Source: Candidatus Sericytochromatia bacterium (GTDB lineage: Bacteria; Cyanobacteriota; Sericytochromatia; S15B-MN24; UBA4093). From it: a stretch of DNA of 64,000 nt. Shown piece after piece: positions 19,902 through 64,000 of this stretch. The translations under genes were made by a program, and so were the position numbers. Location: NCBI GenBank assembly GCA_036676495.1, contig JAKFCT010000001.1, positions 1-64,000 of the forward strand, read 5' to 3'. Every line of letters begins with the position of its first letter. Position 1 is the stretch's first letter. The notes below the pieces were generated by a model that was not told where the DNA came from, ran no database searches, and saw only the letters and a program-made list of their open reading frames with translations.

Positions 19902-20906
19902 ATGACGATACGCATGGGGGGGACGGTCGAGACCGACTGGGACGTGGGACACCCGCGCTGGAGGGAGGTCCTGCGCCGGAGCGCTGGGGCGACCTTCTTC
20001 CATACCCCAGGATGGTACCAGACGCATGCGGAGATCGGGGGCGCGGCGGTTCGCGCGTTGGGATTTCGCTGGCCGGACGGGCAAGAGGCCTTGCTGCCGC
20101 TGGCGCTGCGCTCCCGGTATCGCGGCTGGGTCACGGAGGCGCAGGCGGGGGTGGAGAATGGCTACGGCGGGCTATTGAGTCCTCAGCCGCTGCCTCCGCA
20201 CCGGATCGAGGAGGCCTATGCCCAGGTGCGGGAGCGCTATCCGAATCTCAGGGTGCTGGGCAATCCACTGGGTCGGCAGAGCGTGCCGGCGCAGGGCCGG
20301 GTCCTGGAGAGCTTCACGCAGGCCGTGCCGATCCTGGAGCCGGCGGCCCAGGTGGCCCGGATGAGCGGGCTGCGGCAGCGCAATCTCCGCCGGGCGGAGA
20401 AGGCGGCTTTCTCGCTGGAGCGGATTCATCCGGTCGTTCCCTCGGACACGCGGGACCTCTACCCCGTTTACCAGGAGCATAGCGCCCGCTGGCAGTACCG
20501 GCGCTGGGTGCGCGACGAGGCGTACTTCCGGGCGCTGTTCCGGCACGCCGGCCATGACCTGACAATCTTCGTGGCGCGCCATGGGGGCGAGATGGCGGGT
20601 TTCATCCTCCTGGGGGGCTGGGGGGAGACGATCGTCGAGTTGCACCTGGCCACGCGGGCCGCCAAGGATCCACTGCAAGTCGGGAGCTACCTGGTAGCCA
20701 AGTCCCTCGAATGGGGCTACGAGGCCGGCTACCGGGTTTTCGACTTTCTGCCGAGTGGAACGCTCGAGGGCATCATCGCGTTCAAGGAGTCCTTCGGAGC
20801 GGAGCAGCTCCGCCAGGTCGAGGTGGTCCAGGACAGCCTCTGGAGCCGGGGGCTCTCGATCCTGCGCGGCGCCCTGTCCCGCGAGACGCTCGCCTCCAGC
20901 CACTAG
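19902..20906 (+). CDS. FemAB/BcsL-like GNAT acyltransferase
   Basis: ATFFHTPGW, YGGLL, RRAEKA, FDF...GIIAFKESFGA. Confidence 0.75.
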   Translation: MTIRMGGTVETDWDVGHPRWREVLRRSAGATFFHTPGWYQTHAEIGGAAVRALGFRWPDGQEALLPLALRSRYRGWVTEAQAGVENGYGGLLSPQPLPPHRIEEAYAQVRERYPNLRVLGNPLGRQSVPAQGRVLESFTQAVPILEPAAQVARMSGLRQRNLRRAEKAAFSLERIHPVVPSDTRDLYPVYQEHSARWQYRRWVRDEAYFRALFRHAGHDLTIFVARHGGEMAGFILLGGWGETIVELHLATRAAKDPLQVGSYLVAKSLEWGYEAGYRVFDFLPSGTLEGIIAFKESFGAEQLRQVEVVQDSLWSRGLSILRGALSRETLASSH

Positions 20907-29398: not shown

Positions 29399-30151
29399 AT
29401 GTCCCGCATCTCGTTCCTCGTCGCCGCCATCGCCGGAACCCTCGCCATCCAAGCCTGCGCCGTCCAGTCTCCCAGCGCCTCCAGCAGCAATCTCAGCTTG
29501 CCCGGCATCGAGCCGGTGGCCGCTTCGGCCACCCAGACGGGCACCGACGTCACGGTCAGCCTCGCGGGCACCAGTTACGCCACGCAGTACGTCAGCGGTG
29601 ACATCGAGGAGATCCTGATCGGCCTCTATGACACGAACCCCGGCAACCCGGTCAACCCCGACTCGGCCGCCAACTTCGCCTTCTCGATCGGGGGTTGGCT
29701 CAAGACGGACAACGCCGCCGCCCATCGGTTCACCGGCGTGGAGTACCCCGTGCCGTACTTCGATGACGTCCGCTACCTCTGTGGCCAAGACATCGACGAT
29801 CCGACTTACCAGCTCCAGAACGGCCGCTACATGATCCGGCGCTTGACCAAGGCGGGTGGAGGCTTCACGTCGCCCACCGTCCACCAGGCCGTGACCTTCT
29901 ACAACATTCCCGACGGCAACTACAAGGTCTTCGCGGTCGCTGCCAAGAGCGGCGTCCTGATCGGCCGCGACGTCAAGCCTCTCGACTTCGACGCCTCGGA
30001 TCGCGTGTTCTATTCCGGCAACTCGGGCCGCAGCTACGTCCGCACCAACCTCGTGCCCGTGCTCAACCTCGTGCTCGATCCCAATCCGGATGTCGAATCG
30101 CACGTCGGCATCGAGGACGATGGCGCGAAGCCCAACTTCGGCAATCCTTAG
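29399..30151 (+). CDS. Hypothetical lipoprotein
   Basis: Lipobox IQAC, RBS AAGGAG, strong codon bias. Confidence 0.75.
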   Translation: MSRISFLVAAIAGTLAIQACAVQSPSASSSNLSLPGIEPVAASATQTGTDVTVSLAGTSYATQYVSGDIEEILIGLYDTNPGNPVNPDSAANFAFSIGGWLKTDNAAAHRFTGVEYPVPYFDDVRYLCGQDIDDPTYQLQNGRYMIRRLTKAGGGFTSPTVHQAVTFYNIPDGNYKVFAVAAKSGVLIGRDVKPLDFDASDRVFYSGNSGRSYVRTNLVPVLNLVLDPNPDVESHVGIEDDGAKPNFGNP

Positions 30152-30810: not shown

Positions 30811-31743
30811 TTACTTGAGGGGGATTCCGGCGGCCTGCGCCGCGTTCTTCAGTTGTTCCAACCCGTCGGCGGGCCGCAGGATCGTGATCGCTTCCGCGGT
30901 CTTGCGCGGATCGATGCCGCCGTAGACGATGCCCTCGATCAGCTTGCTGGACTCCTTGGGGCCGATGTTCTCCTTGACGATCCGGTTGACCGTGAGGTGA
31001 GGAAGATCGAAGTAGGTGACGCGCGACTCCTTGAACGCCTCGCGAGCATTCAGGCGCTTGGCGAAGAAGTTGTGGTTGCCGTCCGAGAAGAGGACCCGGC
31101 CCGCCAGTTCGGCCTCCTTGTACTGGACCGTGAGGTTTCCGTACTTGGCGATGTCCTGGGCGTACTTCTTGTTGCCGCCCACCGTGACATAGAGCGGATT
31201 GTGCTCGCGTAGTCCCAGGCGGATATCCGCCAGGTTGCGGCCCGCGACGTAGGAGACGCCCTTGCTGTCGATCTGGGTTTTCAAGGGCAGATCGTAGAGC
31301 GAGCGAATCTTCCCTTCGTTGAGCGCGTTGCTGAAGGAGAGGTTGGTGTAATTGGCCGCGATGACCTGCTGCTTCTTGAAATGCGTGATGAGGGCGTCGT
31401 ACTTCGCCTCGGCCTTGACGCGACTGCCGAATTTCTCGGTAAGGATGCCGAGGGTCTCTTCCTTGTAGCGCGCGGCGTTGGCCTTGCTCTGCTTCCAGGC
31501 GGCGGCGACCTCGGGGTGGAGCTCGATGCGCGTGGCCTTCACGGGGCGGAACTCGGTCTTGACGAGCTTGAGCTTCTTGCCTTCGATGAGCTGGCGGGCA
31601 GACTCGGAGACGAAGAGGGAGTCCTTGGCGACCTTGCCCGCGATTTCGCGCGTTGCCGTCTTGGCCGCATCGTCGCTCACCGAGCTGAACGACTGGCGCA
31701 TCCAGGTCCGAAGGCCTTCCATCCCCTGACGCACGACGCTCAT
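30811..31743 (-). CDS. Hypothetical effector-like protein; C-terminal half resembles DUF3626/ADP-ribosyltransferase fold
   Basis: RBS AGGAGGT; P-x-Y, YG, R-x-x-F and IEGIVYGGI motifs; low-complexity N-terminus. Confidence 0.6.
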   Translation of the reverse strand: MSVVRQGMEGLRTWMRQSFSSVSDDAAKTATREIAGKVAKDSLFVSESARQLIEGKKLKLVKTEFRPVKATRIELHPEVAAAWKQSKANAARYKEETLGILTEKFGSRVKAEAKYDALITHFKKQQVIAANYTNLSFSNALNEGKIRSLYDLPLKTQIDSKGVSYVAGRNLADIRLGLREHNPLYVTVGGNKKYAQDIAKYGNLTVQYKEAELAGRVLFSDGNHNFFAKRLNAREAFKESRVTYFDLPHLTVNRIVKENIGPKESSKLIEGIVYGGIDPRKTAEAITILRPADGLEQLKNAAQAAGIPLK

Positions 31744-31782
31744 CGTCACCTCCTGCAAACAGCTTCTTAACGATCTCTGTAC

Positions 31783-32121: not shown

Positions 32122-33141
32122 ATGGTGGATAAGCAGACCGCCCTGGATTGGTACCGCCAGATGGTGCTGATCCGGCGCTTCGAGGAGAAGTGCGCCGAGG
32201 GATACGCCTACGCGAAGATTGGCGGCTTCCTTCACCTCTACATCGGTCAGGAAGCCGTCGCGGTGGGTGCGATCAACGCGCTCAACGACGATGATGACAT
32301 CGTCACCCACTACCGCGATCACGGGCATGCGATCGCCCGGGGCCTCGACAGCAACGGCCTGATGGCCGAGCTTTACGGCAAGGAAACCGGATGCAGCAAG
32401 GGCCGCGGCGGCTCGATGCACCTCGCCGATGCCTCCAAGCACATGTGGGGAGGCTACGCCCTGGTTGGCGCCCACCTGCCCCTGGCCGTGGGCATGGCCA
32501 TGCGGCACCAGTACACCGGTAGCAAGCAGGTCGCCATCGCCTTCTTCGGCGACGGCAGCACCAACAACGGTGGCTTCCACGAGTCGCTCAACATGGCGGC
32601 CGTCTACAAGCTCCCCGTGATCTTCATGATCGAGAACAACCTCTACTCGATGGGCGTGGCCATCCACCGCGACTCGGCAATCGAGGATCTCCACAAGCGC
32701 TCCGTCGCTTACGGCATCCACGGCGAGGCCGTCGACGGCATGGATCCCCTGGCGATGTACGAGGCCACCCAGCGGGCGGCCGAGCGCTGCCGCAACGGCG
32801 AAGGCCCGGTGCTGCTGGAGGCCAAGACCTACCGCTTCCGCGGGCACTCCATGGCCGACCCCGAGTACTACCGCAACAAGGAAGAAGTCGAGTTCTGGCG
32901 CCAGCGCGACCCGATCGCCAACTGGAAGAAGAAGCTTCTCGACGACGGCATCGCCACCGAGGACGAGCTCAAGGCCCTCGACGAGTCCGTGGAGCGGGAA
33001 ATGGACGAGGCGGTGCGCTTCGCGGACGAGAGCCCCGATCCGGCGCTGTCCACGCTCTGCGATTACCTGTACGCGACCCCCGTGGAGAACGGCGACCTCT
33101 GCCGTCAACAGCAGGCTGACAAGCCTGACTACGCCCAATAG
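32122..33141 (+). CDS. pdhA: Pyruvate dehydrogenase E1 alpha
   Basis: GFLHLYIGQEA, GRGGSMH, GDG...ENN, YRFRGHSMADP. Confidence 0.96.
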   Translation: MVDKQTALDWYRQMVLIRRFEEKCAEGYAYAKIGGFLHLYIGQEAVAVGAINALNDDDDIVTHYRDHGHAIARGLDSNGLMAELYGKETGCSKGRGGSMHLADASKHMWGGYALVGAHLPLAVGMAMRHQYTGSKQVAIAFFGDGSTNNGGFHESLNMAAVYKLPVIFMIENNLYSMGVAIHRDSAIEDLHKRSVAYGIHGEAVDGMDPLAMYEATQRAAERCRNGEGPVLLEAKTYRFRGHSMADPEYYRNKEEVEFWRQRDPIANWKKKLLDDGIATEDELKALDESVEREMDEAVRFADESPDPALSTLCDYLYATPVENGDLCRQQQADKPDYAQ

Positions 33142-33153
33142 GAGAGCCTCGCC

Positions 33154-34125
33154 ATGCCCGTCATTACTTACCGTGAAGCCCTGCGCCAGGCCCTGCGCGA
33201 GGAAATGCTCCGCGACGACTCCGTCTTCATCCTGGGCGAGGACATCGCCTACTACGGCGGATCTTACGGCGTGACCAAGGGATTCGTCGAAGAGTTCGGC
33301 GAGAAGCGGATCAAGGACACCCCGATCTCGGAGACCGCGATCATCGGTGCCGCCACCGGCGCCGCCATGACCGGCCTGCGCCCGATCGCCGAGATCATGA
33401 GCTTCAACTTCATCCTCCAGGCGATGGATCAGATCGTCAACCACTCGGCGAAGATCCACTACATGTTCGGCGGCCAGATGCAGGTGCCCATGGTCATCCG
33501 CACCCCGGCCGGCTGGAGCCAGCTGTCTGCGACCCACTCCCAGACGCTCGAGCCCCTGTTCGCCTACATCCCCGGCCTCAAGGTCGTCATGCCCAGCACC
33601 CCCTATGATGCGAAGGGCCTCCTGAAGGCCGCCATCCGGGACAACGACCCGGTGCTCTTCATCGAGCACGCGCTGATCTACGCCACCAAGGGCGAGGTCC
33701 CCGAAGAGGAGTACGTCATTCCCATCGGCAAGTCGGTCGTGCGCCGGCCCGGCAAGGACGTCACCATCGTCTCCTTCTCGCGCATGGCGCTGGAATCGGT
33801 GGCGGCGGCCGAGGAGCTGGCCAAAGAAGGCATCGACTGCGAGATCATCGACCTTCGCTCCCTGCGTCCGCTGGACATGGGTCCGGTGCTCGAGTCGCTG
33901 AAGAAGACCAACCGGGTGGTCGTGGCCGAAGAGGGCTGGAAGTCCCACGGCATCGGCGCCGAGGTCTCCGCGCGCATCATGGAAGAGGGCTTCGACTTCC
34001 TCGACGCTCCGGTCAAGCGCGTGGCGGGCATCGAGATTCCCGATCCCTACAACAAGCACCTCGAGTACCAGGCTTTCCCCCACAAGGCGGACGTCATCAA
34101 GGCCGTGCGGGAAGTTCTCAAGTAG
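33154..34125 (+). CDS. pdhB: Pyruvate dehydrogenase E1 beta
   Basis: DTPISE, ATHSQ, DLRSLRPLD, FDFLDAP. Confidence 0.96.
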   Translation: MPVITYREALRQALREEMLRDDSVFILGEDIAYYGGSYGVTKGFVEEFGEKRIKDTPISETAIIGAATGAAMTGLRPIAEIMSFNFILQAMDQIVNHSAKIHYMFGGQMQVPMVIRTPAGWSQLSATHSQTLEPLFAYIPGLKVVMPSTPYDAKGLLKAAIRDNDPVLFIEHALIYATKGEVPEEEYVIPIGKSVVRRPGKDVTIVSFSRMALESVAAAEELAKEGIDCEIIDLRSLRPLDMGPVLESLKKTNRVVVAEEGWKSHGIGAEVSARIMEEGFDFLDAPVKRVAGIEIPDPYNKHLEYQAFPHKADVIKAVREVLK

Positions 34126-34151
34126 CCCAAGTCAACATAAAGAGGTAAATC

Positions 34152-35489
34152 ATGGCCACGAACGTGCTCATGCCCAAGATGGGCTACGACATGACCGAGG
34201 GGAAGATTCTCCGCTGGCTCAAGCAGGAAGGCGATGCCGTCAACAAGGGCGAGCCGATCGCCGAAATCCAGACCGACAAGGTGAACATCGAAATCGAAGC
34301 GTTCGCCGGGGGCGTGCTCGCCAAGATCCTTCACGGGGCTGACGAGGACGTGGCGGTCGGCGAGGTCATCGGCATCATCGCCGCGCCGGGCGAGAAGGTG
34401 GAAGCTCCCAGCAAGGCCCCCAGCGCGGGGCAGGCGCTCGCCAACAACGGCTCGGGCCTCGACATGGCCCAGTCCGGCGAAGGCGGCGAGGCCGTCGGCC
34501 TTGGAGTCGGCGCCGGAACGGGCGCCAAGGCCAACGCGACCGTCGCCCCCTCGGCGGCGATCGAAGAGCCCAGCCGGGTCAAGCAGGCCAACGCCGACGC
34601 CCAGCGGGCAGCCGAGGGAGCTCATGCTCCGGCTCGCCGCGAGGGCGAGCGCGTGAAGGCTTCGCCCCTGGCCAAGAAGATGGCCGCCGCTCAGGGCGTC
34701 GAACTGGCAGAAGTGCCGGGGACGGGCCCTGGAGGCCGGATCGTCAAGCGGGACGTCGAGGGCTACAAGCCGGTCCAGAAGCCCGCGGCGTTCGTGCCCC
34801 AGGCCGCGGTCACCGAGGTGCCCCTCACCCGGATGCGTCAGGCGATCGCCCGCAGGCTCTCCGAGAGCAAGCAGACCGCCCCGCACTTCTACGTCACCAA
34901 GGCCATCGACATGACGGAGGCCGTCGCCTTCCGCGCCCAGGTCAACCAGACCTTGACCGGCGCCCAGAAGGTCTCCTTCAACGACATGGTCATCAAGGCC
35001 GTCGCCAAGGCCCTCAAGGCGTTCCCCAACGTCAACGCCTCCTGGGCCGAGGACCGGATCGTCCAGCATGAGGTCATCAACGTCGGCATGGCCGTCGCGC
35101 TGCCCGAAGGCCTGGTCGTTCCCGTCATCACCGATGCCTACGGCAAGACCCTGTCGCAGATCGCCGAGTCCGCCAAGGACCTGGCGGCTCGCGCCAAGGA
35201 GAACCGCCTGCGTCCCGACGAGTTCTCGGGCGGCACCTGCACCATCAGCAACCTCGGCATGTTCGACGTCGAGTCCTTCACCGCCATCATCAACCCGCCG
35301 GAGTCGGCGATCCTGGCGGTCGGCTCCATCGTCAAGGAGCCCGTGGTCATCAACGACGAAGTGGTCGTGCGCTCGATGATGCGCATCACCATCTCCAGCG
35401 ATCACCGGGTGATCGACGGGGCGCTCGCGGCTCAGTTCCTCGGTGAGGTCAAGCGCCTCCTCGAGACTCCGCTGCTCTTGGTGGTGTAG
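34152..35489 (+). CDS. pdhC: Dihydrolipoamide acetyltransferase E2
   Basis: Lipoyl motif TDKV, E3-binding ASPLA...GTGPGGRI, catalytic DHRVIDG. Confidence 0.95.
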   Translation: MATNVLMPKMGYDMTEGKILRWLKQEGDAVNKGEPIAEIQTDKVNIEIEAFAGGVLAKILHGADEDVAVGEVIGIIAAPGEKVEAPSKAPSAGQALANNGSGLDMAQSGEGGEAVGLGVGAGTGAKANATVAPSAAIEEPSRVKQANADAQRAAEGAHAPARREGERVKASPLAKKMAAAQGVELAEVPGTGPGGRIVKRDVEGYKPVQKPAAFVPQAAVTEVPLTRMRQAIARRLSESKQTAPHFYVTKAIDMTEAVAFRAQVNQTLTGAQKVSFNDMVIKAVAKALKAFPNVNASWAEDRIVQHEVINVGMAVALPEGLVVPVITDAYGKTLSQIAESAKDLAARAKENRLRPDEFSGGTCTISNLGMFDVESFTAIINPPESAILAVGSIVKEPVVINDEVVVRSMMRITISSDHRVIDGALAAQFLGEVKRLLETPLLLVV

Positions 35490-35491
35490 TC

Positions 35492-36889
35492 ATGAGCCAG
35501 TACGACGTCGTCGTGATCGGCGCGGGCCCCGGCGGATACGTTTCCGCCATCCGCGCCGCCCAGCTGGGTCTCAAGACCGCGGTGATCGAGGACTCCAAGA
35601 TCGCCGGCCTCGGAGGCGTCTGCAACCAGTGGGGTTGCATTCCCTCCAAGGCGGTCCTCAAGAACGCCACCGTCCTCCACACCATCAAGCACGCCGAGGC
35701 CTTCGGGATCACGGTGGAGGGCGTGAAGGCGGATTACTCCAAGGCCATCGATCGCTCCAAGAAGATCGTCGACACCCAGGCCAAGGGCGTCGGCTTCCTC
35801 TTCCGCAAGAACAAGATCGACCTAATCGAGGAGCGCGGCCGCCTTGCCGGCAAGGGCAAGATCAAGCTCGAGCCCTCCGGCAAGGAGATCACGGCCAAGC
35901 ACATCATCCTGGCGACCGGTTCGCGCCCGCGGGTCTTCTTCGACATGAAGCCCGACGGCAAGGTGGTCTTCACCGCCAAGGAGTTCCTGTCGATGCGGGA
36001 CGTCCCCTCCAGCATGATCGTGCTGGGGGCCGGCGCCATCGGCATGGAGTTCGCCTACGTGCTCCAGAACTACGGCTGTCAGGTCACCATCCTCGAGATG
36101 GCCGATCGCCTGCTGCCCAAGGAAGACCCCGAGATCTCGCAGGAGATTGAAAAGGCCTTCAAGAAGCTGGGCGTGAAGTTCCACACCAAGTGCAAGGTCG
36201 ACAAGGTCGAGCAGAAGGCCGACGGCGTCACGGTGCATGTCACCGCGGCCGACGGTTCGAAGCAGACGTTCGAGGCCCCCCGCTTGCTCTCGGCCACGGG
36301 CATCATCCCCAACTCCCAGAACCTCGGTCTCGAGGAAACGGGGGTCAAGACGAATGCCCAGGGCTTCGTCGAGGTCGACGCGTCGATGCGGACCAACGTC
36401 GCGGGCGTCTACGCCATCGGCGATCTCACGGGCAAGTATCCGCTCGCCCATGTCGCGTCCGCGCAGGGCATCGTCTGCGTCGAGAAGATTGCGGGCCACC
36501 ACCCGCAGCCGCTCGACTACAACAAGATGCCTTCGGCGACCTACTGCGAGCCGCAGGTGGCCTCGATCGGCCTCACCGAGCCCGACGCCAAGGCCAAGGG
36601 ATATGACGTGAAGGTCGGCAAGTTCCCCTTCCGTCCCAACGGCAAGGCGCAGGGAATCGGGGAGATCGACGGTTTCATCAAGTTCGTGGTCGACGCCAAG
36701 TACGGCGAGATCCTGGGCATCCATATGGTGGGGCCCGAGGTCACGGAGATCCTGGGCGAAGCGAGCCTCGCGATGAACCTCGAGGCCACGGCCGAAGAGG
36801 TGGATATCACGGTGCACGCGCACCCGACCCTCTCCGAGGTGTTCAAGGAGGCGGCCTTGGCCGCCGTCGGTCAACCGATCCACATGTAG
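35492..36889 (+). CDS. lpdA: Dihydrolipoamide dehydrogenase E3
   Basis: GAGPGG, GGVCNQWGCIPSK, HAHPTLSE. Confidence 0.96.
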   Translation: MSQYDVVVIGAGPGGYVSAIRAAQLGLKTAVIEDSKIAGLGGVCNQWGCIPSKAVLKNATVLHTIKHAEAFGITVEGVKADYSKAIDRSKKIVDTQAKGVGFLFRKNKIDLIEERGRLAGKGKIKLEPSGKEITAKHIILATGSRPRVFFDMKPDGKVVFTAKEFLSMRDVPSSMIVLGAGAIGMEFAYVLQNYGCQVTILEMADRLLPKEDPEISQEIEKAFKKLGVKFHTKCKVDKVEQKADGVTVHVTAADGSKQTFEAPRLLSATGIIPNSQNLGLEETGVKTNAQGFVEVDASMRTNVAGVYAIGDLTGKYPLAHVASAQGIVCVEKIAGHHPQPLDYNKMPSATYCEPQVASIGLTEPDAKAKGYDVKVGKFPFRPNGKAQGIGEIDGFIKFVVDAKYGEILGIHMVGPEVTEILGEASLAMNLEATAEEVDITVHAHPTLSEVFKEAALAAVGQPIHM

Positions 36890-37009
36890 CCCTCAGGAGC
36901 TGCCGGGAGGCGGCCTTGGCCGCCGTCGGTCAACCGATCCACATGTAGCCCTCAGAAGCTACCGGGAGGCAGCGCTAGCTGCCGTCGGTCAACCGATCCC
37001 CATGTAGCC
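36847..37009 (+). repeat. 59-bp tandem repeat (about 2.8 copies) made of the lpdA 3' end plus 16 nt downstream
   Basis: Copies start at 36847, 36906 and 36965; each contains gtcggtcaaccgatcc..atgtagcc. Confidence 0.95.
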
Positions 37010-37034
37010 GCGGCTCACCGGAGCGCGATTCCGC

Positions 37035-37067
37035 GAGAAGGTCCCCCCGTTTCGGGGGGACCTTCTC
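37035..37067. terminator. Bidirectional terminator hairpin
   Basis: gagaaggtccccccg-ttt-cggggggaccttctc, a 15-bp perfect stem. Confidence 0.8.
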
Positions 37068-37520
37068 TCAGCTCCAGGGCAACTGCGCGGGCTGTGATTC
37101 ACCTGGCGTCGATTGGCGACGCTCCCGCTGCTCTCTCAGCAGCGCCAGTTCGGTCTCGATGGCGTCGAGCCTCGCCGCGAACTCGTCCTGCCGGCGGTTC
37201 GCCCGCACGGCCAGGATGGTCGAGACCGTCGTCAGCCCGACCACCACTGCGGCGGGAATCACCGGAATGGCCGGAAAGAAGGGAATCACCGATTCGAGCT
37301 TCCGGCTCTTCTTCCATTCCCGGCTCGCGGTTTTCCGCAAGGGCTTGGCGGTATGCCGGGCCTCACGAACGCCGCGCGACCAGCTCGTACGCAGCCAGTG
37401 CTGCGCCCGATCCATGCCCCGGGTAATCAGCTGGTCTCCGACCATGGAGACCAGCAACGCAGGAACGGCGGTAGTCAAACGATCCGTCGGGCTGCGCCGA
37501 CGGTTCAAGATCGTGGCCAT
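37068..37520 (-). CDS. Hypothetical membrane protein with C-terminal coiled coil
   Basis: RBS AAAGGAGGT; one hydrophobic segment. Confidence 0.65.
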   Translation of the reverse strand: MATILNRRRSPTDRLTTAVPALLVSMVGDQLITRGMDRAQHWLRTSWSRGVREARHTAKPLRKTASREWKKSRKLESVIPFFPAIPVIPAAVVVGLTTVSTILAVRANRRQDEFAARLDAIETELALLREQRERRQSTPGESQPAQLPWS

Positions 37521-37533
37521 CGGCCACCTCCTT

Positions 37534-38064
37534 TCAGCGGCGGATCAGGGTCTGAACCAGACGGAGGGTGCGGCTGGCCAGATCTCCGAGCGAATGCGAC
37601 ACGCCCTCAGCGGTTTCCTCGATGCGCTCCCGGGCCTCTCCGACGATGCTCTCCTCCGACTCCGATTCCTGGGCCTTCGCTTGGGGCTGCGCTTGTCCGC
37701 GCTCTTTCAGCTCCGCGGCATGCGTGGGAAGCCGACGCTCTTGCCGGGGCTCGGTGGGGAAACCCGAATCCAGCCAGGCGTTCCAGCCGCCTTGGAGCGC
37801 TTCGGCGCAATAGCCCGCCGCCTGAAGGGCGTCCGCGACCTTGAGGGTGGCATCATCCTGTTCCTGGTTGCCGTAGACCACGATCTCGACGTCATGCCCC
37901 AGGTTGAAGAGATGCGGGTTGATGTCGCGGGCATCGAGGTGAATGGCCCCGGGAATCATGCGATCGCTGTCGCAGAACCCTCCTCGCACGTCGATGAGCA
38001 GTAACGCCTGTCCCGCGTCCATCTTGCGCTTCAGGTCCCTGACCGAGAGGCGGTGCGTGATCAT
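37534..38064 (-). CDS. Rhodanese-like protein lacking the catalytic Cys, with a helical tail
   Basis: IDVR, IPGA, VVYG in place of VYC, LQGGWNAW; RBS AAGGAGGT. Confidence 0.7.
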   Translation of the reverse strand: MITHRLSVRDLKRKMDAGQALLLIDVRGGFCDSDRMIPGAIHLDARDINPHLFNLGHDVEIVVYGNQEQDDATLKVADALQAAGYCAEALQGGWNAWLDSGFPTEPRQERRLPTHAAELKERGQAQPQAKAQESESEESIVGEARERIEETAEGVSHSLGDLASRTLRLVQTLIRR

Positions 38065-44871: not shown

Positions 44872-45042
44872 TGAGCTAACGTCGTTTCTACAGGACAGCG
44901 AGAGTGAACTTTCACCCTAATATGGTCGGTTTCACGGCTATCTCTCGCTGCCTTTCGAAACAGCCGCGGGCGCTAGGGGACAGTATAGCGCGAGCAGCCG
45001 ATCCCCGACAGGGCCTGCCGGGGATCTCGGCTCATGACGCGC

Positions 45043-46449
45043 TTACTCCAGGGCGCGGATGAAGTCGATCAGGGAGTCGAAGCGGTCGGGCGGGATATTG
45101 GGATAGGGCGGCATCGCCACGCCGGGTTTGATGGCCTGAGGGTTGCGGATCCAGCGCCTCAAGTAGTCCTCGTCCCTTCGGGCGGAGATGCCTGCGAGGT
45201 CCGGGCCGAGCTGGCCGCCGGCTCCCTTGATGGCATGGCAGCTGACGCAGCCTTGTTCCTGGTAGACCGTCCAGCCTGCCTGCTGGGACGGGGTCAGGTT
45301 CTCGTAGCCCTTCGGCACGGAGGTCATGGCTGTCGGATCCAGGCCTGCCGTGTTGGGTGCATTGGCGCCCTGCACGTTCAGCCAGACGAGGATGGCGAGG
45401 AAGACGGTGGCCGGGATGACCGTGTAGGGGCGGGACAAGGGATGGCGCCGGGGGTTGTGATCGACGAAGGGTAGGATCAACAGCAAGACCCCGATGAGCA
45501 GCGGAATGCCTACCACCCCGACAAGTTCCCAGCTCCCCGGAAAGTACCAGAGGGCCTGGAAGAGCCAGAAGAAGTACCATTCGGGCCGCGGCACGAAGCC
45601 GGTGCTGACCGGATCCGCCGGGTCCCCGAGCTTGGCCGGAAAGAGGATGGCCATCACGACCAGCACGACCACCACGACCAGGCTGACGATGGCATCCTCC
45701 ATGACGTTATGGTAGAAGGGCTGGCCCTTCTTCTTGAGGTCCTCGTAGTACTCGAGGTAGGCGCGCTGGGGATCGGGCGCCGTCGCATAGGGCTCCTCGC
45801 GGCCGGGCGGGTTGGAGATCCCTTGCCGGACCACCAGGGCGATGTGAAACGCGATCAACGCGAAGGTCGCCAGCGGCAGCAAGATCACGTGAAACGCGTA
45901 CCAGCGCGTCAGCGTGTACGATCCGACGTCGCGCCCGCCCAGGATCAGCTCGCGGACCTGCTCGCCGATGACCGGCACGACCGCCGACATCTGGCCGAAG
46001 AGGACGGTGGTCCAGTAGGCGGTTTGATCCCAGGGCAGGAGGTAGCCCGTGAAGGCGAACGCCAGGACCAAGAGCAAGAGGAAGGCGCCGGAAAGCCACG
46101 TGAGCTCCCGGGGGAACTTGTAGGCCCCCCAGTAGAAGGTCCGTAGCATGTGCAGCACGACCAGGATCACCATGGCAGAGGCGGCCCAGTGGTGGAGGTT
46201 GCGCACGAAGCCGCCGAGGAAGACCTGGTTCTGGATGTAGGCGACGGACTCGTAGGCCACCTGGGGCGAGGGCTGGTAGTAGATCATCAGCAGCATGCCG
46301 GTGACGACCATGAGGATGAAGGTCACGGTCGTGGCGCTGCCGAGCGTGTAGGCCCAGTTCACGCCGGGCGGGATGTGCCGGTCGAGGAAGTTATGCGCCA
46401 TCGTCCGGATGTTGGCCCGGGAGTCGAGCCAATCGATCAGGTTGCGCAT
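45043..46449 (-). CDS. Cytochrome b (N+C domains) fused to a monoheme cytochrome c
   Basis: Heme-b His in RNLHHW/LHMLR and FHV/FHI, GYLLPWDQ, PEWY, CVSCH, AMP. Confidence 0.92.
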   Translation of the reverse strand: MRNLIDWLDSRANIRTMAHNFLDRHIPPGVNWAYTLGSATTVTFILMVVTGMLLMIYYQPSPQVAYESVAYIQNQVFLGGFVRNLHHWAASAMVILVVLHMLRTFYWGAYKFPRELTWLSGAFLLLLVLAFAFTGYLLPWDQTAYWTTVLFGQMSAVVPVIGEQVRELILGGRDVGSYTLTRWYAFHVILLPLATFALIAFHIALVVRQGISNPPGREEPYATAPDPQRAYLEYYEDLKKKGQPFYHNVMEDAIVSLVVVVVLVVMAILFPAKLGDPADPVSTGFVPRPEWYFFWLFQALWYFPGSWELVGVVGIPLLIGVLLLILPFVDHNPRRHPLSRPYTVIPATVFLAILVWLNVQGANAPNTAGLDPTAMTSVPKGYENLTPSQQAGWTVYQEQGCVSCHAIKGAGGQLGPDLAGISARRDEDYLRRWIRNPQAIKPGVAMPPYPNIPPDRFDSLIDFIRALE

Positions 46450-46451
46450 GG

Positions 46452-46991
46452 CTAGGCCCCCCGGCCTTGCGCGTCATCTTCCCGATGGCTGGTCGGGCCT
46501 TTCCCGGGAGCATGGCCGCCCGGTGACTGGCCGATGTAAAGCGTGCCGTTCTCGATCCGCACGGCGTACGTATCGAGACCATGCGGGGGAGGCCCCCCGA
46601 CCACCGTGCCCTCCTTGGTGAAGGCGCCGCCATGGCATGGGCAGAGAAAGAGCTCCGCATTGGCGTTCCAGTCGTAGGGGCAGGCCAGGTGGGTGCAGTT
46701 CGAATCGTAGACGGAGAATCGGCCGTCTCCCCAGTTCACGACCCAGGCGCCCTGGCGATAGGGAGGCTCTCCACGGACCGGAATCTCGAAGCCCTCCAGG
46801 GTCGGCTTCCCCACCGGGTAGCGACTCACCGGGCCCAGCGCGATCCACGGCGGGGTCTGGGGACGCCGGATGAGCGGGGAAAAGAGATACCCGATGATCG
46901 GAAGGCCCAGCAGCATGGCGATGAAGGCACCGATCGCCCCGATGATCCGGTAGATGAAGCTGCGGCGCGAAACAGCGTCCGAATTCGCCAC
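46452..46991 (-). CDS. Rieske Fe-S protein (QcrA/PetC-like)
   Basis: Tat motif SRRSF, TM, CTHLAC, CPCHGG. Confidence 0.93.
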   Translation of the reverse strand: MANSDAVSRRSFIYRIIGAIGAFIAMLLGLPIIGYLFSPLIRRPQTPPWIALGPVSRYPVGKPTLEGFEIPVRGEPPYRQGAWVVNWGDGRFSVYDSNCTHLACPYDWNANAELFLCPCHGGAFTKEGTVVGGPPPHGLDTYAVRIENGTLYIGQSPGGHAPGKGPTSHREDDAQGRGA

Positions 46992-47106
46992 GACGACGCT
47001 CCCTTCTGCATGCCGAACACGGCACGACCCTAGCGCCTTTCGGGACGAGAGCCTAGTGGGTCGCCACGGGAGAATTCGTCAGAATGGACCGCTAGTAGGT
47101 CACGCG

Positions 47107-47856
47107 CTAGCAGGTCACCCGCCCGCCGTCGACCAAGAGCGTCTGCCCGGTCACGTAGGAGGCCTGCTCGGACGCCAGGAAGAGCACCGCCGCGGCGATG
47201 TCCGCGTCCGTCCCGAAGCGGCCCATGGGAGTGCCTTCCTCGACCGCCTGCCGCTGCTCGGGACTCAAGCCCGCCTGAATCCGGGTCTCGACGTAGCCCG
47301 GCGCCACCCCCACTGCGCGCACCTGCGGAGCCAGCTCCTTGGCGAGACTCTTGGTCAACGCGATCACGCCCGCCTTGGCCGCCGCGTAATGCATCGACGA
47401 GGCGGCCCCTTCCACCCCGCGCATGGACGCGATGTTGACGATCACCCCGCTCCCGCGCGCGACCATGCCCTGGGCTGCCGCCTGCGCGCAGAGGAACGTT
47501 CCCTTCAGGTTCACGTCCACCACGTCGTCCCACATCTCCTCGGTGATGGCGAAGAGTCCGCCACGCCGCACGACCCCGGCATTGTTGACCAGGATGTCGA
47601 GCGGCCCCAGCTCCGCTTCGACCCGCTCGACCATGGCCCGGACCTCGGCCGGCCGCGCGACATCGGCCCGGACGGCGAGCGCGCGCGCCCCCCTCTCCCG
47701 GATCGACGCGACGACCGCGTCGGCTGCCGCCTCGTCATGGGCATAGTTGACGGCCACATGGGCCCCCTCGTTTCCGAAGGCCTGGGCGATTCCCCGGCCG
47801 ATGCCATGGCTCGCGCCCGTCACCAAGACGACCTTGCCCTTGTAACCCAGGTCCAT
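47107..47856 (-). CDS. Classical SDR oxidoreductase (FabG-like)
   Basis: TGASHGIG, NNAG, YAAAK. Confidence 0.9.
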   Translation of the reverse strand: MDLGYKGKVVLVTGASHGIGRGIAQAFGNEGAHVAVNYAHDEAAADAVVASIRERGARALAVRADVARPAEVRAMVERVEAELGPLDILVNNAGVVRRGGLFAITEEMWDDVVDVNLKGTFLCAQAAAQGMVARGSGVIVNIASMRGVEGAASSMHYAAAKAGVIALTKSLAKELAPQVRAVGVAPGYVETRIQAGLSPEQRQAVEEGTPMGRFGTDADIAAAVLFLASEQASYVTGQTLLVDGGRVTC

Positions 47857-57176: not shown

Positions 57177-58604
57177 TCAATCCTTTACCAAGCCACCGGT
57201 CGCCTCCCCGAATTCAGGGGCGAGGGACGGCGAGGACGCAGCAGATAAGGGCGAGGGTTGACCAGAGAAGGGCGAGGGTTGACCGGAGAAGAGCGACGAG
57301 AGGCGGAAGTCCACGAACTGCTGGGGGTCGTCGACCTGTTCGCGTCCCATGGAGACCCAGAGGCGATCGCCCTGGAGCTGGGAGACCATGGCCGTGACGG
57401 ACGTGAGACGCCCCCAGTCTCCCAATACCACGGGGCCCAGGGCCATGCGGACCGGGACGGAGCGCGAGATCGACTGGGCCGTGGGGCCGCGCGTCCCGGA
57501 AACCGGATCGATGAGGTCCGCGAGCACGGCCTTCGCGCGTTCGGGATCGAGCTGGCCGTACTGGGCGGCCAGAAGCTTTCCGAAGCGCTCGTCCCGTGCG
57601 CCCGGCTTCGCCTGCGAGAGGCCTTGGGCTTTGAAGGTCCCCATGCTCTGGGCGAGATCCGCGAGCGAACCGCCCGAGCCATAGGATCTCGCGGCGACCT
57701 GGCCGCCGGAGGCCTCGACGTAGCGGGCGCCTTCGCCTTGGGCCAGGGTCGCGACGAAGGCCTGGCTGGTCGCGCCGGCGGCACGGCGCAGCTCGGCCTC
57801 GGCGGCATCCGGGCCTTCGGCGTTCATCACGCGCAGCGTGAGCCAGCGCGGGGGCAGGCCCGCCGTCTTCGAAGCACCTGCCACCGGGTCGATGGCGGCG
57901 AAGAGGCCGTTCTCGCTCCATGCGGCCTCGGCGGCCAAAGAGCCGACCCGGGTCAAGGCGACCCAAGCGGGGCCCGATTCCGGGTGATGCACCCAGAGCA
58001 TGGTGAAGCGCTGGCGCGTCCCGAAGGTGAGATCATCCGAGATGCGGCCGAGGAGGGGCCTTCCGTCGAGGCTGGCCTTCCCGCGGGCGATGAAGCCGCC
58101 GCCGCCCGGCAGCAGGGCGGGCAGGTTCTTGGAGAGCGCGGCGTAAGGGGGATCGGTGGAAAGCAGCAGGATATCCGCCATGGCGAGCCCGGAGCCCGTG
58201 GCGAGGCCTCTCAGGAAGTCCCGCTCGTCCTGGGTGAGGTGCCGATCCTGCTGGCGCGCGTAGAAGCGGTGGACGAAGCCCGGCGTCAGGACGAAGGCCG
58301 GAAAGGCGCGTCGCTCATGGTAATCGCGGACCTGATCGCGGATGCGCTCGCGCATGAGGGTGCCCTGCTGCATCCCGGCCTGGAAAAGCGTTCCACGGGT
58401 CTCCATGATCAGGACTCCCCGGTCCCGGATGACCCGCCCCTGGGTATCGACGCTCTTGGCGATGACCTGGCGCTCGGGCATCGCGGGGCCATTGGGGACG
58501 TTGGGAATGGCCTCTCCACAAGCGACCAGGAGAGACGCCCCCAGCAAAAGGGCAGGAAGAGCGAACTTGGGACGGACGATCTGGGGCAACGGTCTATGCT
58601 CCAC
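57177..58604 (-). CDS. C45/Ntn-hydrolase-like lipoprotein, nucleophile Cys apparently absent
   Basis: Lipobox LVAC, G.QQG..MRE.I, GLATGSGL, ASLDGRPLLGR, SENGL. Confidence 0.55.
   Translation of the reverse strand: MEHRPLPQIVRPKFALPALLLGASLLVACGEAIPNVPNGPAMPERQVIAKSVDTQGRVIRDRGVLIMETRGTLFQAGMQQGTLMRERIRDQVRDYHERRAFPAFVLTPGFVHRFYARQQDRHLTQDERDFLRGLATGSGLAMADILLLSTDPPYAALSKNLPALLPGGGGFIARGKASLDGRPLLGRISDDLTFGTRQRFTMLWVHHPESGPAWVALTRVGSLAAEAAWSENGLFAAIDPVAGASKTAGLPPRWLTLRVMNAEGPDAAEAELRRAAGATSQAFVATLAQGEGARYVEASGGQVAARSYGSGGSLADLAQSMGTFKAQGLSQAKPGARDERFGKLLAAQYGQLDPERAKAVLADLIDPVSGTRGPTAQSISRSVPVRMALGPVVLGDWGRLTSVTAMVSQLQGDRLWVSMGREQVDDPQQFVDFRLSSLFSGQPSPFSGQPSPLSAASSPSLAPEFGEATGGLVKD
57243..57291. 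repeat. 21-bp in-frame tandem duplication in the gene 3' end (FSGQPSP x2)
   Basis: aagggcgagggttgacc at 57247 and 57268. Confidence 0.85.
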
Positions 58605-63189: not shown

Positions 63190-64000
63190 ATGGTTCACAC
63201 GGTAGATGGCGGGGGATCCGTTCGGCGGAACTTCCATCCCGCGGATTTGAACAAAGATGGCAAGGTGACCCGTTCCGAGGCCCAGCAGTACGTCGATAAG
63301 AAAGTTCCCGCTGCCAAGCCCGAGGGAGAGTTCAAGACGCCCGTTGCCAAGCCCAAGGGAGAGTACAAGACCCCCGTTGCCGACCCCAAGGGAGAGTTCA
63401 AGACGCCCGTCGCGAAACCCAAGGAGGACGTCAACGCCACCCGCTACCCGACGGTGGGCGAGCACATCGAGAATACGCTGACCGAGGCCAAGAACGAGTT
63501 CTTCGAGAGCGCCAAGATCGCCGGCGTCATGGCGATTCCCGGCGTCAACGTCGCCGCTGGCGTGGTCTATGCCCGCCACATGAGCGAAGCCCGCAAGGAG
63601 ATCGCCCAGCTGCCCATGGATCCCGAGGGCAAGTGGAAGGACAAGGCGCGCGACATCATCAGCCGGCACCACGAGGCGGCGGAGGATGAGATCATCGCCC
63701 TGCCCGGCAAGGTGGTCGATGGGGCGGTGGATGCCGTGGACAAGGTCGTCGACGGGGCGGTGGACACCGCCGAGGCCGTCTGGGGCGGCGTCACCGACGC
63801 GGCCGAGGCCGCCTGGGACTTCGCCAAGACCGAAGTCCCCCGCGCCGCCAAGGAACTCGGCCGGGACGCCGCGGTGCTCGCCATCATGGCCAACCCGCTG
63901 GGCGCCGTCCCGAGCGGCGTGATCATCAGCAACCACATGGCCCAGGCCAACAAGCGCATCATGGACCTGCCCATGGATCCCGAAGGCAAGTGGAAGAGCG
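63190..64000 (+). CDS. Repeat-rich protein with N-terminal EF-hand, truncated by the window end (absent from ORF track)
   Basis: RBS AAAGGGG; open to the window end: MVHTVDGGG...DLNKDGKVTRSE; LPMDPEGKWK occurs twice. Confidence 0.8.
   Translation, partial: MVHTVDGGGSVRRNFHPADLNKDGKVTRSEAQQYVDKKVPAAKPEGEFKTPVAKPKGEYKTPVADPKGEFKTPVAKPKEDVNATRYPTVGEHIENTLTEAKNEFFESAKIAGVMAIPGVNVAAGVVYARHMSEARKEIAQLPMDPEGKWKDKARDIISRHHEAAEDEIIALPGKVVDGAVDAVDKVVDGAVDTAEAVWGGVTDAAEAAWDFAKTEVPRAAKELGRDAAVLAIMANPLGAVPSGVIISNHMAQANKRIMDLPMDPEGKWKS
63308..63424 (+). repeat. 33-bp coding tandem repeat, about 3.5 copies (PVAKPKGEFKT)
   Basis: agggagagt(t/a)caagac(g/c)cccgt repeated at 33-bp period. Confidence 0.9.

Follow-up and report, generated by a model that had tools for sequence, protein, structure and literature searches.

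Integrase-driven elements that carry a replacement gene end leave displaced gene fragments behind (PMC10111431, PMC4383910). In the icd/icdC pair of prophage e14, and likewise in displaced fragments of tRNA and tmRNA genes, the gene end is found again downstream, oriented like the gene itself, and each of the two ends has its own hairpin behind it. In homology-facilitated illegitimate recombination (HFIR), junctions contain microhomologies of 3-10 bp, and one study of E. coli frequently found ends duplicated through a single crossover (PMC3240628). Correction of inverted-repeat arms by template switching has also been described in bacteria (PMC5941160). Here we describe an array of three copies of the lpdA 3′ end that resembles icd/icdC in the placement, orientation and hairpins of its copies, but holds no element or integrase between them and has differences that are clustered and fall in rare codons. 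In icdC, the only control that was used (from E. coli), 165 nt contain 12 differences, ten of them silent and two Asp/Glu exchanges, and these are evenly spread (clustering P 0.29).

The array occupies positions 36847-37009 of the window, by which we mean the whole 64,000-nt stretch of DNA that was analysed. In the assembled sequence it is a tandem repeat with a period of 59 nt and 2.8 copies (TRF score 270), and a self-BLAST aligns 104 nt at 92.3% identity (E 4e-37), in agreement with the original prediction of a triplicated lpdA end. The unit is made up of the last 13 lpdA codons, the stop codon, two further nucleotides and a 14-nt spacer. Its 18-nt core occurs three times in the 64-kb window with at most three mismatches, each time within the array, against 0.14 occurrences expected. 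A longer protein made by read-through is ruled out, because the 59-nt period shifts the frame. For comparison we used two loci, here called L001 and L002, from the 119 candidate stretches of one genome-contig search; both belong to Candidatus Sericytochromatia and both come from metagenome-assembled genomes. The features of the locus are as follows.

32122-35489, plus strand: pdhA-pdhB-pdhC, the upstream genes of the pyruvate dehydrogenase operon (TIGR03182 and NF006667 above cutoff)
34755-37163, no strand: candidate exchanged tract, with a share of L001-shared synonymous sites of 0.55 against 0.40; the signal is weak (16/400 permutations) and the ends are imprecise
35492-36889, plus strand: lpdA, intact, 465 aa, the last gene of the operon and of equal length in both relatives
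36847-36891, plus strand: copy 1, the last 13 codons, stop and 2 nt, holding the coding hairpin at 36850-36865
36848-36855, plus strand: lpdA microhomology and putative junction, sharing 7/8 nt with the right arm of the terminator behind lpdA in L001 (L001:11438-11445)
36892-36905, plus strand: spacer U1, probable left-arm remnant of an L001-type terminator (12/13 nt), ancestral at both variable spacer sites
36906-36950, plus strand: copy 2, the same as copy 1 and untranslated
36951-36964, plus strand: spacer U2, decayed, with two G>A changes (36956, 36961)
36965-37009, plus strand: copy 3, in which the 8 nt after the initial G equal the L001 terminator right arm and 36977-36984 equal U1 36898-36905, with two loop changes and His>Pro at 37000
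37010-37034, plus strand: tail with a weak hairpin; its similarity to the spacers is not significant
37035-37067, no strand: final hairpin, a perfect 15-bp, terminator-like structure (-32.7 kcal/mol), unlike the spacer type in sequence and lacking a canonical U tract
37068-37520, minus strand: convergent hypothetical gene, syntenic in both relatives, with about 50% amino acid identity to each

The lpdA product matches TIGR01350 at 559 bits (cutoff 409). The protein is unchanged, and the operon is still closed by a strong hairpin. The terminator scan did not call the structure at 37035-37067. For pdhABC, which were scanned in NCBIfam only, a third family, TIGR01349, was a best match below its cutoff. 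Just upstream of the operon, a gene of 315 aa at 30811-31758 has no Pfam or NCBIfam match and is missing from the relatives' aligned blocks. The convergent gene at 37068-37520 shows a four-fold divergence of 0.57 from both relatives, against 0.35 between the relatives (40 sites).

The 45-nt coding parts of copies 1 and 2 are identical. Copy 3 differs from copy 1 at five silent sites (36971 G>A, 36974 C>G, 36975 T>C, 36977 G>A and 36980 C>T) and at a single non-silent one (37000 A>C, His>Pro), the same count of six substitutions as in the original prediction. Its hairpin is kept, as was also claimed there, at -12.6 against -12.4 kcal/mol and with one compensatory change from G-C to A-U. Two differences that the prediction did not include separate the spacers U1 and U2, which are identical at 12/14 nt: G>A at 36956 and G>A at 36961. 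Seven of the eight differences in the array lie within 25 nt (P 0.003).

No array is present at the lpdA end of either relative. LpdA of L001, the closest relative found, is 94% identical to that of the window and LpdA of L002 88%; at four-fold sites the two relatives diverge from the window by 20% and 34%, so both are distant. At the six diagnostic sites L001 equals copy 1 throughout, the uncommon TTG included, while L002 equals copy 1 at three, copy 3 at one (the C of the Leu codon, that is, the T>C at 36975) and neither copy at two. Relative to L001, seven of the eight differences are derived changes in the distal unit and none falls in the proximal unit. All three copies have CCG at 36874-36876, where both relatives have CCC, and the CCG completes a second small hairpin of the gene end. 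Synteny downstream is preserved, and the slot before the stop of the convergent gene (37035-37067, L001:11416-11452 and L002:11436-11471) holds three different strong hairpins.

The comparison with L001 points to an old terminator as the source of the spacer. Nine matches to U1 at 11/13 nt or better were found in 213,580 strand positions; two of them are the array itself and another two are the arms of the terminator behind lpdA in L001, among them the best match outside the array (12/13). The likeness of U1 to the L001 UTR has a P of 0.018 by shuffling and of 0.006 against genomic windows, and among 53 strong hairpins the L001 lpdA terminator is the best match (score 21, next 16). The right arm of that terminator in turn equals the Glu-Ala-Ala codons of lpdA at 7/8 nt, and copy 3 opens with its exact 8-mer. 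Further along, positions 36977-36984 of copy 3 repeat without mismatch the 8 nt at U1 36898-36905, which belong to the old left arm, and they cover two of the silent changes; this match is partly forced in that gene and spacer are already identical at 6/8 nt. In total, at three of the five silent sites copy 3 has the base of a terminator arm. These observations make it likely that the array was joined where an old terminator and the gene end share a microhomology, as judged from one relative that is 20% diverged at four-fold sites. The silent difference at 36971, the first of the five, would most simply be terminator sequence. Within the 64 kb alone, spacer matches were at chance level (5 against 4.3 expected). 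A recurrence of the spacer behind copy 3 was looked for in the tail (P 0.16-0.75), and the tail was rejected as a decayed fourth spacer, its similarity not being significant. We also gave little weight to the idea that the final terminator is specifically L002-like: its P was 0.009 by shuffling, but the match is unspecific among real hairpins (22 against 21, 20 and 20).

We consider it fairly probable that the array is a non-functional duplication scar that was joined at microhomology between terminator and gene and was then reshaped by hairpin-templated changes. The scar is probably neutral, and it resembles what an ordinary duplication leaves behind more than the product of a new mechanism. 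First, DNA carrying lpdA and an L001-type terminator would have been joined, inside the right arm, to the Glu-Ala-Ala codons 59 nt upstream, which would place a second gene end behind half a terminator; the site of the junction comes from the comparison, and the event is our reconstruction. The junction would have left the terminator-derived A at 36971, and the partner arm (36977, 36980) could then have been turned into terminator-arm sequence as the nested repeats, inverted as well as direct, misaligned or allowed template switches, with ordinary decay accounting for the remaining changes of copy 3. Minisatellite-type slippage turnover can refresh a repeat copy from its neighbour. Slippage in the 59-nt repeat may thus have added copy 2, or refreshed it from the gene, and so produced the polarity of the array. 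With copy 2 refreshed in this way, only two against zero spacer changes are left for the polarity to explain, which is unremarkable.

The second of these steps has a counterpart in quasi-palindrome template switching: copy 3 shares with it the complementary changes in both arms (36971/36980), but no single switch covers all five clustered changes (PMC5941160). No single template for the whole copy 3 cluster was found in a search of 36300-37600. An intragenomic donor near 20090-20120 was considered for the patch from spacer to copy 3 as a short-patch replacement (score 31, reached by 2/150 shuffles) and was dropped: several queries had gone into the search, the likeness is imperfect, and unit A also reaches 28 with that stretch.

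For the first junction we tentatively favour allele exchange over slippage, as a possibility that falls short of probable. The preference exists because a different UTR and a different terminator stand behind the last copy. Exchange would achieve this in one step: the incoming piece would bring lpdA with one half of its terminator and be connected to the gene end already present, which has a terminator of its own. Among informative synonymous sites, 68/122 in lpdA group the window with L001, against 371/904 in 13 other genes (Fisher p 0.0024), and the L001-like tract over pdhC-lpdA suggests an exchange at the first junction, weak as the signal is. Against exchange, the gene at 29399-30151 is equally L001-like (35/61 sites), the CCG common to all three copies has no counterpart in either relative, and the likeness of the final terminator to that of L002 is unspecific. 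The lipoprotein-like hypothetical gene at 29399-30151 could itself be a second exchanged tract. HFIR shares with the array the short junction microhomology (7/8 nt here) and the possible foreign ancestry on the upstream side; it usually deletes recipient DNA, however, which also counts against exchange, whereas here 45 nt are duplicated and the foreign tract is weakly supported (PMC3240628). Slippage on one chromosome with a later change of the UTR is possible but rather doubtful. Tandem duplication by slippage with minisatellite-type turnover would give the head-to-tail period, the microhomology at the junction and the decayed terminal unit. Slippage alone, however, predicts the spacer and the rest of the terminator after the last copy; neither recurs there, which we count against it, and one more event would be needed.

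The changes in copy 3 were originally taken as the record of a translated allele displaced by serial replacement of the 3′ end, a reading that we now consider unlikely. In its favour, the silent excess has a P of 0.0014, 0.0031 or 0.0062 under three mutation spectra if substitutions are independent, the derived changes are polarised, copy 3 shares the T>C at 36975 with L002, the L001-like tract has a P of 0.04, and icd/icdC offers a precedent with 10/12 differences silent. The check that had been proposed, a comparison of lpdA ends in relatives, nevertheless found the L001 allele equal to copy 1 at 6/6 sites and L002 equal to copy 3 at one site only. The four changed codons of copy 3 are about 3400 times less likely than those of copy 1 by window codon usage and about 860 times less likely by that of the pdh operon, where GCA accounts for 1.6% of its codon family, CTA for 0.9% and GCT for 6.8%. 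Five of the six differences fall within 10 nt (P 0.019), and the last nine codons contain no silent difference; a coding-only model gave such clustering in 31-53/20000 trials and kept both hairpins in 539-887/20000. Because Pro occurs at position 464 in 0/150 homologues (8 with a gap there), the His>Pro change would have arisen outside a working gene. The claim that the silent changes record former translation is thus not supported, in view of the L001 allele, the rare codons, the clustering and the three of five silent states that equal a terminator arm.

A structure-only null gives at least five silent changes in 0.5-7.2% of cases, and neither a pure coding nor a pure structure null fits copy 3 well. 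The coding hairpin pairs position i with 21-i, so that positions 3/18, 6/15 and 9/12 are paired, third codon positions with third. Changes that affect both arms symmetrically will therefore often be silent. When the three terminator-matching sites are set aside, two of the remaining three changes are silent (P 0.08-0.14) and the bias left is unremarkable, although this accounting is post hoc; with only two sites set aside, P is 0.017-0.046. Three of the four loop bases have changed and the changes are silent all the same, a point against the duplication scar that we prefer. At most two changes of copy 3 (36974, 36975) could be allelic. If the duplication scar is the correct reading, an excess of silent changes in a copy that does not code is no sure sign that it was once translated, since a hairpin in frame with the codons makes arm-symmetric changes silent and terminator sequence can enter at the junction; a terminator arm as the junction of a gene-end duplication would moreover be countable across genomes.

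Part of the original interpretation of copy 3 as a displaced former gene end holds up. Copy 3 is the older, more decayed unit, as its sequence indicates, and under exchange at the first junction it would once have been translated. Displacement by an incoming allele is plausible because copy 3 is older, is followed by an unlike UTR and terminator, and lies behind a modestly L001-like pdhC-lpdA; the silent changes are not supported as a record of that translation. A stronger version is just as unlikely as the translated-allele reading: terminator arms would serve repeatedly as junctions, each incoming lpdA allele would add a 59-nt unit with the newest next to the gene, and the oldest unit might have been kept as a folded 3′-UTR element. 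This version fits the ancestral proximal spacer and the derived changes, none in the proximal and seven in the distal unit. If true, the array would record allele sweeps in order of time and without an integrase, and arrays of this kind would date and order the exchange of core-gene alleles in uncultured lineages.

It is distinctly unlikely that selection keeps unit B (36951-37009) as a folded 3′-UTR element, for example as a decay barrier or a processed small RNA. Unit B is predicted to fold into a three-way junction with a z score of -3.25, against -0.84 for unit A; all eight differences, His>Pro included, are unpaired, compensatory or pair-improving, and eight random changes reached the energy of unit B in 56 and 10 of 1500 trials. 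Unit B is missing from both relatives, however, has no Rfam match near gathering score and is followed 25 nt downstream by a strong hairpin, and its closing stem follows from the repetition of a local inverted repeat. Palindrome correction also improves pairing without selection (PMC5941160), and from one genome the two cannot be told apart. Over the whole window, only a tRNA-Val reached Rfam gathering scores, with three sub-threshold matches at the final hairpin.

That the copy number is a product of assembly, with two strains of different spacers merged via an identical 45-nt repeat, is very unlikely. In its favour, the 45 nt of copies 1 and 2 show no difference while the spacers do, both relatives are metagenome-assembled genomes, and an exact 55-nt repeat stands at the left edge of the window. 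Both junctions from spacer to copy are nevertheless novel sequence and, by our reasoning, must stem from real molecules; strains 13% apart in the repeat and yet identical in the gene end are improbable; and the spacer has an independent homologue in L001.

It is highly improbable that an integrase-driven element once used the lpdA end as its target, brought a replacement end with it and left this scar on its later deletion between att-like sites: a gene followed by its displaced 3′ fragment is the layout of such elements (PMC4383910, PMC10111431), but only 14 nt separate the copies, L001 has the spacer-type hairpin as a plain terminator and no element, no integrase, transposase, reverse transcriptase or cas match was found among the 63 Pfam-scanned proteins (18 with no match at all; the right-edge ORF was excluded from the scan), and a phage or plasmid origin was rejected as the replacement end had no match in 50,697 phages and four chance-level matches (E 0.7) in 72,556 plasmids.

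Other repeat systems differ from the array in simple ways. Its spacers are 12/14 identical and no cas match was found, in contrast to CRISPR, and its core occurs only in the array within 64 kb, in contrast to REP/BIME. Diversity-generating retroelements produce differences only at template adenines. Here an A stands at 2/6 sites in copy 3 and at 1/6 in copy 1, and there is no reverse transcriptase match. SPDIR was among the known systems considered, from the part of its description available (10.1101/2023.11.22.568220). In the literature searched, with most subscription papers outside it, no description of terminator-mediated gene-end duplication was found, and we make no claim of novelty.

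Among the 105 genes predicted in the window, L001 and L002, two are followed by a repeat of their own end, lpdA and an SDR gene (47107-47856, minus strand). The last four codons of the SDR gene are repeated as a 12-nt copy with a period of 15 at 47089-47122, a score reached in 1/3000 null pairs. Its one change is non-silent (n=1), so the check for synonymous bias in other gene-end arrays, also proposed originally, lends no support to a general bias. L002 has a single copy at the SDR end, and the repeat lies at the edge of a segment that L002 lacks. In a scan of the 65 window genes with a high threshold, a match at the pdhB gene end was gapped and was rejected as chance.

Several further observations were made in the window. 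Positions 44872-47098 encode a Rieske protein and a cytochrome b fused to a cytochrome c domain, and this segment is missing at the syntenic place in L002. An exact 55-nt tandem repeat at 1-123, cut by the window edge, lies downstream of a permease gene and two TrkA-domain genes. Kinship of the copy 3 hairpin with that array was rejected as chance (97/150 shuffles). The motif of the 1-123 repeat recurs at 44890-44976, with a longer insert in one hairpin, upstream of a DUF2726 gene and in the opposite orientation relative to its neighbour; having no Rfam match near gathering score, it is possibly an undescribed repeat or RNA motif. In-frame tandem repeats with periods of 21 and 33 lie in predicted coding sequence at 57229-57296 and 63307-63424, and a 30-nt repeat is found at 63610 and 63967.
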